From assembly GCA_020137815.1 (NCBI GenBank), contig CM035357.1:4650001-4714000 (forward strand): a DNA stretch of 64,000 bases. Reading direction: 5' to 3'. The position numbers and the translations under genes were made by a program. The notes beneath the pieces were generated by a model that saw nothing but the letters and a program-made list of their open reading frames with translations, did not search any database and had not been told where the DNA came from. The stretch is from Hormiphora californensis (Eukaryota; Animalia; Ctenophora). How positions within the stretch are numbered: the first letter of the stretch is position 1; each line of letters begins with the position of its first letter. Shown piece by piece: positions 1 through 63,039 of the stretch.

Positions 1-1797
1 GAGGAGGATGGGGTCCCATTCTATTGGGCTAGATGGATGGAACGATCCATAGGAGACTACGGATACATGAGGTTCGTTTTGCAGCGCCAATTTGACATTT
101 AGCTGTTGGGGAAAGACTAACAGATAAGTTCCATTCTATTTTCATTCAATAATGTGTTTCCGATTGCAGATTCCGAAGGGGTAATAACGCGTGTGGCCTG
201 GACAACTATTTGGAGGTGGTTGAGTCCGGACCCAAAGAAATGCCTGGCCCTCCGACGGTATGTTGAAGTCAAAAACTCCTCTGTGCTCACATCTAAAATG
301 ACGTGACAATCGCAATTTGTAATGTAAAGCGATTCTAAACTTATTTCCCTATTAGGTTAACCCCGAGTCACTTTGTCCCCTTGATATGCCCGTGTATTGT
401 CCGAAAACCAAGACTTGTCGGACAGAGGAACAAGAGTGCCTAGATATTCAGAAAGACTATCTGTCTGTTGCTAAAAAGGCTGAACTCCCGGAAAAATGCA
501 AGGACAAGAGACCGTAAGTTAATAACAGTAAAAAGAGTGGTGAATTTTGCCACTTTTCTGGATAAAGACCCATTTTTCAAAGCTCGCGTGACCGTCTAAC
601 ACACCAAACTATGTCTTGTCTAGGTGGTGCAAGAGAGTGACAAAGCGACATTGTGCAAAGTCAACCTACCAAAAGTACTGCCCAGGATCATGTAAGATGT
701 GTGATGCGAACGGAAACCCCAACTGTAAAGACAGAGATATATCTTCTTTAAACATTACTTTCACCAGGCGTGATAATGAAAAAGTGGTACGTAGCTGAAA
801 CATCCTTTGTTGTTGTGTAACAAGTACTACAGCCCCTGCCTCAACCCCAATACTATCCCCAATCCACAGGCTCTGAGTTTTACTTAATCCCTCCAAAACC
901 CTGAGTCTAACTTTACTCCCGAACCCTGAGTCGAAACCCTAAACTTCCCAAATTCCTCTCCCTGCTTTCACCTTTTCATCCTCATAAATTGTCTCTTTAC
1001 ACCTGATTTCCCTGCAGGAATATACAGACTGCACCCAGCTAAAAGAGGCACAATACTGCATCAGCACGGCAGTACAAATGGCGTGTGAGGTGTCCTGTAA
1101 CGTTAACCCTGTGGACTGTGGCCGAAATACCTCAGCAGTCATCCTGGATAAGCTGGGTGGAAGCACCAAGACCCGGGGACGATGTTACCTTCCCGTCATT
1201 GAAAATGGAAGGGCAACAAACGAGCTAGCGGAAGATGGGACTATTGAGGCGGGTACAAAGCTGAACATAGAATGCGATGAAGGCTTTGAACTGGCGGGTG
1301 AAGAGAACGTGTGCATGATCCAAAACGTGTACATACCTGACAGCAGAAGGAGGCAGTGGTGTAAGCCCATTTCGGAGGCCCGGACCGGCTTTGGGGCGGA
1401 CTACCGGGGCAGCCAGTCCACAACCATGCCTGGGAACAATTGTGCAAATTGGGCGGAACTCGCTGAGAATGGAGCCATTTCAAATGATGCGGAGGCACGA
1501 TTAGCGATTGCCAACGGGAACCACAACTTCTGTAGAAATAACAACAATGACGCCGGACCGTGGTGTTTTCTGTCCGGATCTACCGTCCTGAACAAGGAGT
1601 ACTGTTTCCCATACAACGCGTGTGATGCACAGTGCGGAGAGGGCAAGGTGAGGAGGAACAGGTCTGGACAGTGCGGCAATCTCGTGGAAACTGGCAGGGC
1701 CACATGTGAGCTGTTTAATTTCTCTCATCTGAAGAAGTACCAGTGGATGTGGAATGCGTGTCCCGTAACTTGCTGTGAGAAAGCCGGGTGTGCCTAG
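1..1797 (+). CDS. 5'-truncated multi-exon gene: C-terminal end of a papain-like (C1A) domain, small Cys module, ShK, ShK, CCP/sushi, kringle, ShK. Exons ~1-71, 170-257, 356-513, 624-786, 1018-1797
   Basis: GT-AG splicing is phase-consistent and gives EEDGVPFYWARWMERSIGDYGYMR-FRRGNNACGL (C1A end), CKDKRPWCKRVTKRHCAKSTYQKYCPGSCKMC (ShK), CYLPVIENG...CDEGFELAG (sushi), DYRG...NFCRN...PWCF (kringle) and WMWNACPVTCC (ShK). Confidence 0.85.
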
Positions 1798-12926: not shown

Positions 12927-38972
<26,046 letters not shown>

Positions 38973-39559
38973 CTCAGCCTTACTAAATTGAAAGATGGGG
39001 TTAGGTAAACAAATTTACATATATATTGGAGTGATAACCATGTATGCGGTAGAGGGGGTTGGGGAATTATTATGAAAGAAATTCTATGGTCACGGATACT
39101 TTAAACTAAATAAAACCCGGCATGAGTAATAATGCCCTAATTTCCCGGAGTAAATTGAGAACATGTACATTGTACCAATCCGCCACACTAATCCCTAGAA
39201 ATAAAACCTAACCCCTCATAACTATTGGGTATGATATCCCCTCTTCTTCTCTCCCTCCTGCGCTGTCCTCTCTCACGTTTTCGCGCGCACATGCTACATC
39301 TAGGGAGACTGGAGAGAGGGTACACCGTGCCCAATCACAACTAGTTGTATATATTTTATAAGTTGAGAAAGATTCAGTAGAGTATAAACCTTCTAAAAGA
39401 TGAAGTTCTTATCTATGATCATGTTTGGCCTGGTTAGATTACTACTTGTTGCACTTTAGATCTTCAGGGATAAATGAAAGAGCAGAGCAGGTGATGGTAA
39501 TTAATCCATCTGTTTAAACGGGTAGGAGCAGAAAAGGTTAAGTCTAGACATAGTCTGAC

Positions 39560-54114: not shown

Positions 54115-55691
54115 TCAGTGGAAACTGGGTGGATCGTGAGCATAGGTCGCCCAGTCAGGAATTATTCCGCCTTCAAAATCAAAGGGTAGAAAGTAGTGCA
54201 TTTTGGTTGTCGGGAAAGCACCAACAGAGTCGGCAAGTGTGCACTGTAGAGGTTCCAACTCATCGAAATAGTCCATTATCTTCTCCTTCAGCTCCTCCAA
54301 TACATCAGGATGGGTCTTACCAATGTTGTTAGTCTCAAAGGGATCATCTGTGATATTGTAAAGTCGTGTGACATTCCAGTTAACGCAGTTTTCACCAAAT
54401 GTAAACCTCTCAGTTTGTATCACATGATCCTCCCTCAAGCATGGTTTGTAGCCCAAATAGTGCCTTGTAGTCACCCTTGATGTACGCTGCATTCTCTTTC
54501 ACTGGATTTATGTGAACAAGAATCTCATCTCGCAAGCAGGTGTCTTCGTCGCCGGTAAAAAGAAATGTCGATTGGTCAATGCTGTCCAGAGAGTCGATTT
54601 GTGATTTGCGAACCTTGGAAATCTCTGTAAAGGCCTCCCATCCTCCTGTCCATCGAATGAGGGTAGAGTACCAGTCAGTGACGTGAACATAGCAGGAAGT
54701 GGAACCTCGGGGTACCAGGATATCAGGGTTGGAGCTGTACAGAAATGCAGGAACTCTCACACCTCCCTCAAAAAGTTGGTTTTTCCATCCTCTCAGCGGG
54801 AGGCTGGAAGCAAAACGAGATTTTTCTGCGCCGTTGTCACTGGCCACAATCATTAGTGTGTTATTCCATATACCCGCCTCTTTATAGCTCTCAATCACCT
54901 CGCTAAGAGAATCCTGGGCAGCGTTCAGCATAGCCTGTCGAACACAACTCGCGTTCGCTTTATCAAGACAGTCCTCTTGGAAGTAGGCATCAGGAGCAAA
55001 GAAGGGATAGTGAACATTTTGCATGCTATACATCATAAAGAGAGGCTGGGAGGAGTTGTGGTCCTCAACTACACCCTTAACCCTGCTTGCAAAGAGATTT
55101 TCACTGTATGTTTGGGTTGAATTCGGTAAAATGGACCAGTTTATTTCATCACCATCCTCCTCGCAAAAGTACAAATCGTTATATTTCTTGCCGGGAACGT
55201 ATCTGTGTGACATATAGTCAATTTGGCCTTGGGTGTATCCGTACGCAGTGTCGAAGCCCCGAGTACACGGCATACAATCCCACCGAGCATAGCCAAGGTG
55301 CCATTTTCCCACCAAGTGTGTCGCGTAACCATTAGCACGAAGGACCTCCGGAAGTAAGATCTGATCTCTGTCCAGACACTCCTTGGTATAAGGTTGAAAA
55401 ACTTCGTCGTCAATTCCCAAGGCAATGGCATACCTGACCAGTGTACAGAGAGCCCCGTGCAGGGGTACACAAAAACTGGGAGTAGTATCTGTCCAGGATG
55501 AGACCCTCACTTGCAAGCTTATCAAACAGGGGTGTGGTGATATTCTTTTTAATTTCCGGGTAAGTGTAACCCATATCTCCGTATCCCATATCGTCAATCA
55601 ACACAAACAGGATGTTCGGTTTACCAACATCTGATCCCCGAACAGTTGGAGCTCCAAGAAAAAGGAGGAGGGAGAGAAGGACGGTGACCAT
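54115..55691 (-). CDS. Intronless secreted/lysosomal arylsulfatase (ARSB/I/J-like) split over three frames by two apparent +1 frameshifts (~55437, ~54415)
   Basis: Signal peptide, KPNILFVLIDDMGYGD, FGly motif CTPAR, GKWHLG, RGFD, SDNG, PLRGWK..EGGVRVPAF, HVTDW, LYNITDDPFE. Confidence 0.9.
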
Positions 55692-59263: not shown

Positions 59264-62200
59264 AAAAAGAGGTTTATGTTAGTGTTAGTTAGTGTTAGTT
59301 AGTGTTAGTTAGTGTTAGTTAGTGTTAGTTAGTGTTAGTTAGTGTTAGTTAGTGTTAGTTAGTGTTAGTTAGTGTTAGTAGTGTTAGTTAGTGTTAGTTA
59401 GTGTTAGTCAGTGTTAGTTAGTGTTAGTTAGTGTTAGTTAGTGTTAGTTAGTGTTAGTTAGTGTTAGTTAGTGTTAGTTAGTGTTAGTTAGTGTTAGTTA
59501 GTGTTAGTTAGTGTTAGTTAGTGTTAGTTAGTGTTAGTTAGTGTTAGTTAGTGTTAGTTAGTGTTAGTTAGTGTTAGTTAGTGTTAGTTAGTGTTAGTTA
59601 GTGTTAGTTAGTGTTAGTTAGTGTTAGTTAGTGTTAGTCAGTGTTAGTTAGTGTTAGTTAGTGTTAGTTAGTGTTAGTTAGTGTTAGTTAGTGTTAGTTA
59701 GTGTTAGTTAGTGTTAGTTAGTGTTAGTTAGTGTTAGTTAGTGTTAGTTAGTGTTAGTTAGTGTTAGTTAGTGTTAGTTAGTGTTAGTTAGTGTTAGTTA
59801 GTGTTAGTTAGTGTTAGTTAGTGTTAGTTAGTGTTAGTTAGTGTTAGTTAGTGTTAGTTAGTGTTAGTTAGTGTTAGTTAGTGTTAGTTAGTGTTAGTTA
59901 GTGTTAGTTAGTGTTAGTTAGTGTAGTTAGTGTTAGTTAGTGTTAGTTAGTGTTAGTTAGTGTTAGTTAGTGTTAGTTAGTGTAGTTAGTCATATCTTGT
60001 GTGTAGTTAGTCATATCTTGTGTAGTTAGTCATATCTTGTGTAGTTAGTCATATCTTGTGTGTAGTTAGTCATATCTTGTGTAGTTAGTCATATCTTGTG
60101 TGTAGTTAGTCATATCTTGTGTAGTTAGTCATATATTGTGTGTAGTTAGTCATATCGTGTGTGTAGTTAATCATAAATCAGTTCGTCTTGTTCAAACTTC
60201 AGCAATTCACTCCTCCAAACTCCTAGATCTCACTGACCCCCTCTCTTCAGGGAGACCTAGATCTGGTGTCACAATTTATTAGAGAGAGTGGTTACCAGCT
60301 GGATGAAGCTAAGAGGCTCCCTTTTGTACAACTTCACGAGATCGTGACTGCTCTCAAAGCAGGAAACCTGGCCCCTGCAATGCAGTGGTGTGAAACCAAC
60401 AGAATGGAACTTAAGAAGAGGTAGGAATTCAGGAGGAAAGGTCTGGAGAGCGGAGGTGGGAGTGGTTAAATTCAGGGAGATCTGAAATATATTTAAAAAA
60501 ACATGATCAGTATTTATAGAAGGGATGAGGGCCCTCGAGGGATCTGGAAAAGTGATCATGATCAGTAGCTACCACAATTGCTGAAACATTTCTTTTCCAG
60601 GGGTAGTCTAATAGAATTCCTACTACACCGTCGACATTTTATTAGCCTGGTACAGAACAAGAAAACTACAGAGGCACTGAGATACGCTAAAATACTTGGT
60701 AAGTCTGGTTCACACTGTATAAACTCTTAGGACAGTTTTTCGCCAATATGGCATGGATTGTGGGAACTGATCCTAAACTTTTTATTTCAGGCCAGTTCTC
60801 TGATACGCAGAAGAAACCCCTACAACAGTTAATGGGCACACTCCTGTTTATTAATTCTGGTCTGGAAAATTCACCCTATGCTTACCTAATTGGTAGGTAC
60901 CCTTTTTTGTTCCAACATTATCGAGTTTGGTAGAAATATGATAACTCTTAGTCTCAAGCGATTTTTAGAGAAATCTATTCTTCCAATTCCAATTTTTAAA
61001 TCTTGTATTACTTTGTAATCAGTTCCAGAATCTTGATCCTGTCGTGCGCTTTACCAGAAATCCCTTCATAATACAGTCGGACCCCGATTTAACGGCCCCC
61101 GATTTAGCGGCACCCCGATTTAACGGCAGGATAAATTTCCCCCAAAATTTTTTGAAATTTTTTTTTTGAAATTTTTTTTTGAATTTTATTTTTGAAATTT
61201 TTTTGAAAAACCACGTCCAAATCGTGTTTGAAATCGGTGCATCTTATTGCATGTCTTGCCGGTAATTAGACGGTTCGAAACGAACAGATATGTGATCCCC
61301 ATGAGGCCCATCGAATCGCAATTTAGACGCTTGTTAAACTGGCCTCATGGGGATCACGTATCGGTTCGTTTCGAACCGTCTAATTAGCGACAAGACGTGC
61401 GATAAGATGCACTGATTCGAAACACGATTCGGACGTGGTTGATATACCTTTGAAAAATTTTCATAATTTTTTTTGCAAAATTTTACAGAACTAGCGCACC
61501 CATTGGGTGCGCCTCAAGTAAGGGCTTTTTGATAACTCATAACCCACGCGGCTTCGCCGTGTGGTTCTTTTCGCCCCTTTCAACGCCAATAACACAGTTG
61601 CCATGGCAACTGAATTGGTAAATATGTGGACTGGCATGTTAAAAGTCATTCGAAAATATCAGCAAACTCCCACCGGAAGTTCCAAAAGTGTGAGCAACAG
61701 CTTTACAGCTTTGGGCACATAAAGTGTTTTATGAAGGAGCAGTCTGTCGCTTAGATACCGCCTAACGAACGACCACTTCGACGCGACATCTCCAAATTAT
61801 AATAGAGATGATTGTCAATGCCTTGATCGGTGCTCCCCATGAATTTTCAGAGAAAAATATATTTTGAAATTCAAATTGTTCCTCACCCCGCTTAAAGTGC
61901 CCCGATTCGGCATGGTATCACGTATCGGTTCGTCTAATTAGCAGCAAGACATGCGATAAGATGCACTGATTCGATAAACGATTCGGACGTGGTTGATATA
62001 GAAACCTTAGAAAATTTTTATAACTTATTTTTAAATTATCTTGAAATTACTTTCTTTTTCTAATCAGAAATGATCATGTAATCAATACATGGACATTGCA
62101 TTTAACACTTAGAGGTGTTTTAGTATAGCATTTTGGACAAAACTAGGGTTTTATGGGCCAAATATGCTCTACCCCGATTTAACGGACACCCCGATTTAAC

Positions 62201-63039
62201 GGACAAAACCCTTTCCCCCGAGGGTGCCGTTAAATCGGGGTCCGACTGTATAAGCAAAGATATTCTTCCAATTCTGTTAAAGATGAGTTTAGTAGTAATT
62301 CCTATTCTATTTTCTAATACATATCCCTTGCAGAGGAGGCATATTCGATGGAGATATGTGACATGTTGACAAAGGAGGCGTGCTCTCTCCTGGGTCTCTC
62401 GAAAGAGTCGCCCCTTGCTATAACAGTGGATGCAGGGTGCAAGGCCTTACCTGCCCTAAATGCTATCAAACAGGTATATTATATTTGTATCACTGTCTCT
62501 CTGTCTCCCTCAACTCCAAACCCAATTCCTTTTTTCCAACTCCATAAATTCCAGTAACACAGTGTCATGTTCACAGTGTCATGTTCACGGTGTCATGTTC
62601 ACACATTGTTCAGGTGATGGAGGTTAAACAGTTGTGGGAGCTGAAAGATGAACTTCCCTGCGAGGTGGAACTAGGTCCATCCTGCCAATTCCACACCCTC
62701 CTGGCATGCCCCATCCTCAGGTGAGATCCGAGATTCTGATTACTTCTACAATCCTAGTGACAATAAGTACATTCCTTTCCCCTAAACATATATATCCTCT
62801 CGATCCCAAACTCGCCCAGTAGAGACACTTGTCTAGTCATTAAAACTCCCAAATTGCCCTATAACATGTTTTCTATCACAGGGCCCAGTGTACGAAGACA
62901 AATCCCACCGATGAGGCTAGAATGTGGACATGTCATATCGAACGATGCCTTGAAACGATTGACAATGACCAGCAAAGTGAAGTGTCCATATTGTCCTCAA
63001 GAGACAAGCCCAACCAATGCCCGCGAGCTGCACTTTTGA
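56123..63039 (+). CDS. RMND5: RMND5/Gid2 E3 ligase subunit of the CTLH/GID complex. Exons 56123-56230, 56629-56832, 57897-58066, 58227-58324, 58406-58508 (these three duplicated at 60251-60894), 62334-62473, 62614-62720, 62882-63039; one apparent +1 frameshift at ~62905
   Basis: HKDWHGSISRFGKAIDK; LisH LICEHFLRQG; CTLH LAPAMQWC..NR; CSLLGLSKESPL..AGCKALP; ELPCEVELG..FH..ACPILR; NPPMRLECGHVIS..KCPYCP. Confidence 0.93.
56207..56480 (+). repeat. 39-bp x7 tandem repeat of RMND5 exon-1 end plus donor
   Basis: gacaaactattggaccctgccgtg|gtaagttctt repeated. Confidence 0.95.
56833..57815. repeat. (GTTAGTTAGT)n satellite grading into a 20-22-bp derivative (TGTAGTTAGTCATATCTTG); second copy at 59278-60170
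   Basis: Direct inspection; it begins exactly at the GT donor of RMND5 exon 2. Confidence 0.97.
61074..62248. mobile_element. 1.17-kb Tc1/pogo-type non-autonomous element (CAGTCGGACCCC TIR, TA TSD) with an internal palindrome; truncated duplicate at 58668-59072
   Basis: ta|cagtcggaccccgatttaacgg ... ccgttaaatcggggtccgactg|ta. Confidence 0.88.
61491..61808 (-). mobile_element. Small non-autonomous Helitron nested in the TIR element
   Basis: The minus strand reads A|TCTCTATTATAA...GCGCACCCAATGGGTGCG-CTAG|T: TC start, 3' hairpin, CTAG end, A/T insertion site. Confidence 0.7.

Follow-up and report, generated by a model that had tools for sequence, protein, structure and literature searches.

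A papain-like gene without the catalytic Asn motif and with a ShK-sushi-kringle type tail in the ctenophore Hormiphora californensis

Introduction

What is the role of a papain-like protein in which the motif of the catalytic Asn has been replaced and the protease domain continues into ShK, sushi and kringle type modules? This question is raised by a gene at the start of a 64,000-nucleotide stretch of the genome of the ctenophore Hormiphora californensis (CM035357.1, positions 4,650,001 to 4,714,000; hereafter the window). A first-pass annotation of this sequence had proposed two readings, a secreted pseudo-protease with a lineage-specific architecture or a precursor of ShK peptides. Catalytically dead proteins of the C1A (papain) family are an established and common kind. 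In the papain numbering used here, we take Gln19 and Asn175 to be catalytic positions. Cys25 and His159 are named as C1A active-site residues in passages of a survey of the papain family (PMC10380794).

Results

Gene Structure and Transcripts

The first 1797 bases of the window comprise the last five exons of a gene on the plus strand, the upstream exons of which lie beyond the window start. The exons (1–71, 170–257, 356–513, 624–786 and 1018–1797) form a single reading frame, are separated by GT-AG introns and end with a stop codon at 1795–1797. Splicing of intron 72–169 was revealed in RNA contigs from two studies (X9 and X12), and that of introns 258–355 and 514–623 was confirmed by contigs X9 and X10, respectively. 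No RNA contig bridging the fourth intron (787–1017) was found in eight runs; its position is based on the reading frame and on the gene model of the orthologue from Pleurobrachia bachei described below.

The first exon encodes the C-terminal strands of the C1A domain, and the second, which has RNA-confirmed introns on both sides and is 94% identical to the orthologue, encodes the end of this domain and a Pro-rich linker. The third exon (RNA contigs X9 and X10) contains a four-Cys module at 374–439, a linker of 19 residues without KR or RR and the beginning of the first ShK-type module (ShK1, from position 497). The fourth exon contains the remaining part of ShK1 (up to 702) and the first part of a second such module (ShK2, from 724) with a 14-residue coding insert, as indicated by weak Pfam ShK matches, Cys spacing and RNA contigs X10 and X11. 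The rest of ShK2 (1018–1119), which follows the intron unbridged by RNA, was delimited by the orthologue alignment, the family profile and Cys spacing. The remainder of the fifth exon encodes a divergent sushi (CCP) module (1183–1362), a kringle module (1387–1623) and a C-terminal seven-Cys module (1633–1794; 1633–1797 with the stop codon), the latter defined by the family profile and covered by RNA. No transmembrane stretch is encoded by the window exons, in which the hydropathy of 19-residue segments peaks at 0.86; the exons contain four N-glycosylation sequons.

A possible hidden GT..AG intron of 43 nucleotides in the fourth exon (725–767) was rejected because its removal would break the frame and the stretch is retained unspliced in RNA contigs X10 and X11. 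This stretch supplies the insert of ShK2 and may be an exonised intron.

In other runs we found 38 distinct coding variants, 23 synonymous and 15 non-synonymous, over about 269 and 988 sites, respectively. The resulting pN/pS of about 0.18 (binomial p 2e-7) points to purifying selection, the figure being a rough one (contigs of low depth, no correction for transitions, one row missing from the variant table).

Replacement of the Asn Motif

The site of the Asn-bearing motif of ordinary C1A proteases is occupied in the first exon by FYWARWMERSIG (19–54). The first-pass annotation had described this motif as devoid of the catalytic Asn and had suggested a check of the reads over 1–71, which might restore NSWG. 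They did not: an independent DNA run (X5) showed no differences from the window over 1–650, and two RNA contigs (X9, positions 6–69; X12, positions 1–69) showed none in the first exon. The P. bachei orthologue is identical to the window in 25 of 25 residues. In the multiple alignment the window gene has a one-residue gap at Asn175, and no Asn could be placed at this position either in that register or in an alternative pairwise one. Thus, the Asn-less motif is borne out by DNA, by RNA and by an orthologue 91% identical in sequence. A degenerate pattern designed for it gave no matches in metagenome contigs.

The Orthologue from Pleurobrachia bachei

A search with the last exon revealed a protein of 642 residues (P0001), recorded as P. 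bachei in EukProt, with which the five window exons are collinear at 91–100% identity. The two short C1A exons of the window produced no match by themselves in Pfam or PDB. P0001 matches Pfam Peptidase_C1 (PF00112) with E 7.5e-10 (39.7 bits against a cut-off of 20.7), so that the C1A identity of the domain, proposed initially from the window exons, is established through the orthologue. The P0001 model, built with a 43-row alignment, has a pLDDT of 73.5; a single-sequence fold (pLDDT 37) was set aside. Residues 66–276 of the model correspond to papain-fold structures (Foldseek E 1.6e-8), and comparison with Der f 1 gave Z 19.7 and rmsd 2.5 over 191 aligned residues. It should be noted that the whole-model fold search is dominated by the papain domain and barely probes the ShK, four-Cys and last modules.

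In the catalytic columns of P0001, Cys25 is replaced by Ser and Gln19 by Ala, and in those of a second P. bachei model (P0002) by Ser and Thr, respectively; both states come from P. bachei gene models and belong to an exon beyond the window. The search for an upstream Peptidase_C1 domain and for its catalytic Cys, suggested by the first-pass annotation, was thus answered through P0001, where the domain is present and Cys25 is replaced. It should be mentioned that one block of the protease domain is letter-for-letter the same in P0001 and P0002 and the preceding block differs, both proteins being without Cys25; possible causes are alternative exons, recent duplication or an error in the models.

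A hydrophobic stretch begins in P0001 at Met51, and the mature C1A domain follows directly after it. No prodomain (I29) match was found in P0001, where the leader adjoins the mature domain. Judging by hydropathy only and with Met51 as the start, this leader is likely a signal peptide, and we infer that the first 50 residues of the model are spurious.

Residues 200–222 of P0001 match interspersed repeats in the window (62188–62250, E 1.8e-6, and others) as well as three repeat-derived open reading frames (P0031, P0050 and P0056), and the family matches to the P0001 query end just before them. Judged by these matches, the stretch is a repeat-derived false exon in the gene model. His159 is unreadable in P0001 because its position falls within this false exon, and the apparent Pro at His159 was rejected for the same reason. 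Copies of the interspersed repeat are located in the window at 7.4–7.5, 42.7–42.9, 58.7, 61.1 and 62.2 kb; it has been translated into public gene models and replaces a real exon in P0001.

Modules of the Tail

The tail has a length of about 360 residues, and its modules follow the protease domain in the order four-Cys module, ShK1, ShK2, sushi, kringle and seven-Cys module. The first-pass annotation had read it as ShK-ShK-sushi-kringle-ShK and had overlooked the four-Cys module, which is located straight after the protease domain and is present family-wide. The kringle stood directly, being the only tail module in the window above its Pfam cut-off (PF00051, E 1.6e-12, 48 bits against 34.3); in the alignment of the orthologue to plasminogen kringles the usual first Cys is Ala. 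The sushi module, which gave no Pfam match in the window protein by itself, was recovered through the family: Pfam Sushi (PF00084) was found at E<=0.05 in 16 of the 43 aligned family rows, its four Cys are invariant across the family, and a five-row profile (the window segment and four paralogues) retrieves complement-control proteins.

Identification of the ShK modules is weaker. ShK1 (497–702) has the canonical six-Cys spacing 6-7-8-3-2, with Pfam ShK (PF01549) E-values of 1.8 in the window and 0.035 in the orthologue; all ShK scores are below the cut-off of 20.9 bits, and matches at E<=0.05 were found in 7 of the 43 family rows. ShK2 (724–1119) is related to ShK1 with a profile probability of 96%, its last Cys being shifted in addition to the 14-residue insert. 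The proposed third ShK did not hold: the last module contains seven Cys with a spacing of 12-10-17-3-0-4, which is conserved in the family, gave no Pfam match as ShK and has hhalign probabilities of 6–7% to ShK1 and ShK2.

Intact and Changed Members of the Family

With the region of P0001 from the protease domain to ShK1 as the query, a full HMMER search retrieved 60 matches from 1.84 billion representatives. By local profiles, built in part from the same matched rows, any tail module is present in 18 of the 60 and both sushi and kringle in 10; independently, Pfam detected Peptidase_C1 together with Kringle in 9 of the 21 matches scanned. An alignment scan of metagenomes revealed 31 loci, among them nine full-length paralogue transcripts and no orthologues. 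Word-based protein searches, in which the sole match was P0001 (in one of them among the best 7997 candidates, which alone were scored), are uninformative on the range of the family. In the Atlas, which covers clusters of 50 or more, Peptidase_C1 clusters scored below 0.9 and none had the C1A-ShK-sushi-kringle architecture. The best PDB match of the family profile is cathepsin H (E 3e-27). Among the 21 clusters examined, all taxon-named members are ctenophores, P. bachei (2) and Bolinopsis microptera (the cluster of the intact P0015); we infer that the family is probably restricted to ctenophores.

The catalytic columns were compared in 28 family rows, leaving out L002, L005 and L008 (near-copies) and L009 (frameshifted); several rows are near-duplicates, so that row counts do not equal independent genes. 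The complete set of Gln, Cys, His and Asn is present in nine rows, the catalytic residues are changed in 17, and two have no readable column. Cys25 is absent from all 13 changed rows with a residue at this position (P0005 being poorly aligned), and Asn175 from all 12 that cover it. The QExxDC anchor is located at residues 156–181 in 9/9 intact rows, which implies a long prodomain-like N-terminus, and at residues 68–92, that is after a short one, in 7/7 changed rows with a usable N-terminus. A KR or RR dipeptide precedes the first ShK in 8/9 intact and 4/10 changed rows, and both Pleurobrachia proteins have none in the 19-residue linker before ShK1. The same tail is present on paralogues with an intact catalytic set, so that this architecture does not go hand in hand with the loss of activity.

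In one sub-branch (P0008, L006:29-2128 and L007:21-2036) Cys25 is replaced by Ser, His159 is kept, Asn175 is replaced by Asp, and Gln19 by Lys or Arg. An acidic insert before the His strand, which we take to resemble an EF-hand loop in this sub-branch, is present in P0008, L006 and L007 and also in P0017 and L009. Fusion of a C1A domain with ShK-like repeats alone exists outside the family: P0052 is a separate dead C1A-ShK fusion, in which Cys25 is replaced by Ala and His159 by Gln and the C-terminal repeats are ShK-like.

The window contains two more C1A genes, at 46.8–48.1 kb (minus strand) and 50.8–52.0 kb (plus strand), which keep the His and KNSWG motifs; no family-type tail was found near either of them. 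Open reading frames with a PKA RIIa dimerisation domain (38418–39014, E 1e-8) and with a sulfatase domain (54413–55597, E 2e-28) are located on the minus strand.

Phylogenetic Analysis

In the tree of the protease domain the family is separated from 12 other C1A rows (100/99). With all columns, two groups are resolved, one of the intact rows (100/99) and one of the changed rows (97/95); four short rows, including that of the window, had been dropped from this tree. After removal of 27 motif columns, the family and the intact group hold, the long Pleurobrachia pair takes a basal position, and only 7% of the bootstrap trees keep the changed rows together. Constraining them together was not rejected (p-AU 0.21). 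With the fall of the 97/95 grouping to 7%, one loss of catalysis can no longer be regarded as established; judging by these alignments, a single loss among the dead members is possible.

In an unrooted tree of the tail only, devoid of catalytic columns, intact and changed rows are likewise divided (99/99), and the window protein falls with the changed ones; seven short rows were dropped from this tree. The window and P. bachei proteins form a pair on a long branch in both the protease and the tail trees.

Discussion

We favor, with moderate confidence, the reading that the window gene encodes a non-catalytic protein that is probably secreted, would stay in a single chain and would act by binding or as a scaffold. 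Of the two initial proposals, the secreted pseudo-protease of lineage-specific architecture finds support in the changed Cys25 and Gln19 of the orthologue, in the likely signal peptide directly on the mature domain and in the ctenophore origin of all named members. It can be hypothesized that the tail was acquired by an ancestral C1A protease of ctenophores and that this gene was duplicated. The intact copies would have kept the prodomain-like N-terminus, and the dibasic sites present in eight of nine of them could release the tail. The copy represented by the window gene would have lost the catalytic set together with the prodomain, superfluous in a dead enzyme. With no dibasic site before the tail, its papain fold would remain attached to the tail, giving a multivalent binder that may act as one disulfide-rich chain in the extracellular space of the comb jelly.

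The protein might instead be a decoy or regulator of its intact paralogues, its dead domain titrating inhibitors of the cystatin type or competing for substrate and the common tail bringing it to the site of the active enzymes. This agrees with the occurrence of intact and dead members with the same tail in one family distinct from the 12 other C1A rows (100/99; 100/98) and with the papain fold kept in the model. However, Ser-Trp-Gly of the C1A Asn loop lines the primed side of the cleft, and in the window gene this loop, Ser-Trp-Gly included, is rewritten and one residue shorter; the long branch of the window and P. bachei pair also suggests a changed surface rather than mimicry, and we consider a decoy unlikely. 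An altered catalysis, with Ser25 as the nucleophile of an esterase-like or mineral-related activity, appears quite improbable from the residues in question. A Ser nucleophile has been proposed for silicateins, with the triad Ser-His-Asn, and Ser25 is indeed present in P0001 and P0002, as it is, with His159 and Asp175, in the sister sub-branch of P0008, L006 and L007. Nevertheless, the window gene has neither Asn nor Asp at position 175 in either register, Gln19 is Ala, and other dead members contain Ala or Thr at position 25 and Glu, Arg or Ala at position 159, so that the combination of Ser and His is not conserved.

The second of the initial proposals, a precursor of free ShK-type peptides that would serve in venom or defence and be carried by the dead protease, we regard as very improbable. 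ShK1 does have canonical Cys spacing, and passages of Babonis et al. (PMC6278862) report a ShK-marked cell type of Mnemiopsis and a ShK protein among tentacle candidates. However, the KR or RR before ShK1 that is found in 8/9 intact paralogues is absent in both Pleurobrachia proteins, the ShK scores are below the Pfam threshold, ShK2 carries an insert, and the last module is not supported as ShK. Moreover, the ShK protein in the tentacle list of that paper is of the ShK-sushi type, with no C1A among its 13 annotation rows (PMC6278862). Finally, that the locus is a decaying pseudogene or an assembly artefact is scarcely credible. The long branch, the one unconfirmed intron and the error in the orthologue model would fit it, but the motif is identical in two species and in three independent runs, three junctions are spliced and the frame is open. 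A pseudogene is further argued against by the pN/pS of 0.18.

The preferred reading, a non-catalytic binding or scaffold protein, has parallels among known dead C1A homologues, namely SPE31 (PDB 2b1m), SERA5 (PDB 3ch3), the tubulointerstitial nephritis antigen (suggested by the Atlas with a score of 0.81, which is under its trusted range) and the SMIPP-Cs of scabies mites, which share with it the papain fold and the replaced catalytic Cys. To our knowledge, none of them carries a C-terminal ShK-sushi-kringle tail. In addition, the Asn motif is destroyed in the comb jelly gene and the prodomain is absent from its orthologue. As described in PMC7815109, SMIPP-Cs are inactivated cysteine-protease paralogues that are multicopy, excreted and act by binding; they bind calcium and associate with polymerising fibrin. 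Cathepsin L/H-like C1A peptidases have the same fold and similar sequence, and all four residues (Gln, Cys, His and Asn) persist in the intact paralogues; unlike these enzymes, the window member has no Asn175, no Cys25, Gln19 or prodomain (by the orthologue) and has a tail of about 360 residues. A silicatein-like Ser-His-Asn set is matched by the Ser of the orthologue but not by the window gene, in which Asn is absent.

Active and dead members are likewise found among the proteins that combine kringles with a protease domain, namely plasminogen and its catalytically dead relatives HGF and MSP. The kringle of the comb jelly protein matches plasminogen and HGF chains, and its lysine-binding residues, at what we assume to be their positions, look degenerate. 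This likeness is an analogy and not whole-protein homology: the protease domain of the comb jelly protein is C1A rather than S1 and N-terminal, and there is a single kringle. Astacin-ShKT proteins likewise have a secreted protease domain followed by ShK modules, and kringle and sushi are among the accessory domains of astacins given in passages of a review (PMC9848320); unlike the comb jelly protein, they belong to another catalytic class and are active enzymes.

We found no description of the family in literature searches on ctenophore or Pleurobrachia cysteine protease, cathepsin, kringle, ShK and sushi, with domain-annotation supplements and subscription papers largely beyond their scope. 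The words ctenophore, kringle, ShK and sushi do not occur in the keyword passages and supplement of the papain-family survey (PMC10380794). The relevant parts of Babonis et al. (PMC6278862) contain ordinary C1A and ShK-sushi candidates, and the word kringle is absent from the supplement; the C1A-ShK-sushi-kringle family is not described in the pertinent passages of the astacin review (PMC9848320). Thus, the C1A-ShK-sushi-kringle architecture and the family of paired intact and dead members appear to be new.

A bolder and rather unlikely possibility is that ctenophores have a kringle-protease system on the papain fold, convergent with plasminogen and HGF, in which active C1A-ShK-sushi-kringle zymogens would coexist with dead paralogues serving as secreted ligands or matrix organisers, one sub-branch having Ser-His-Asp and an EF-hand-like loop.

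Apparently, the locus belongs to an undescribed family of secreted papain-like proteins, probably confined to ctenophores, whose tail is of a kind usual on serine proteases and receptors. Its members, which include an intact triad, Ser-His-Asp and a fully lost active site, would provide a natural series for the study of pseudo-enzyme evolution. The digestive, mucus and adhesive secretions of ctenophores are poorly understood, and the family offers concrete candidates for cell atlases of these animals.
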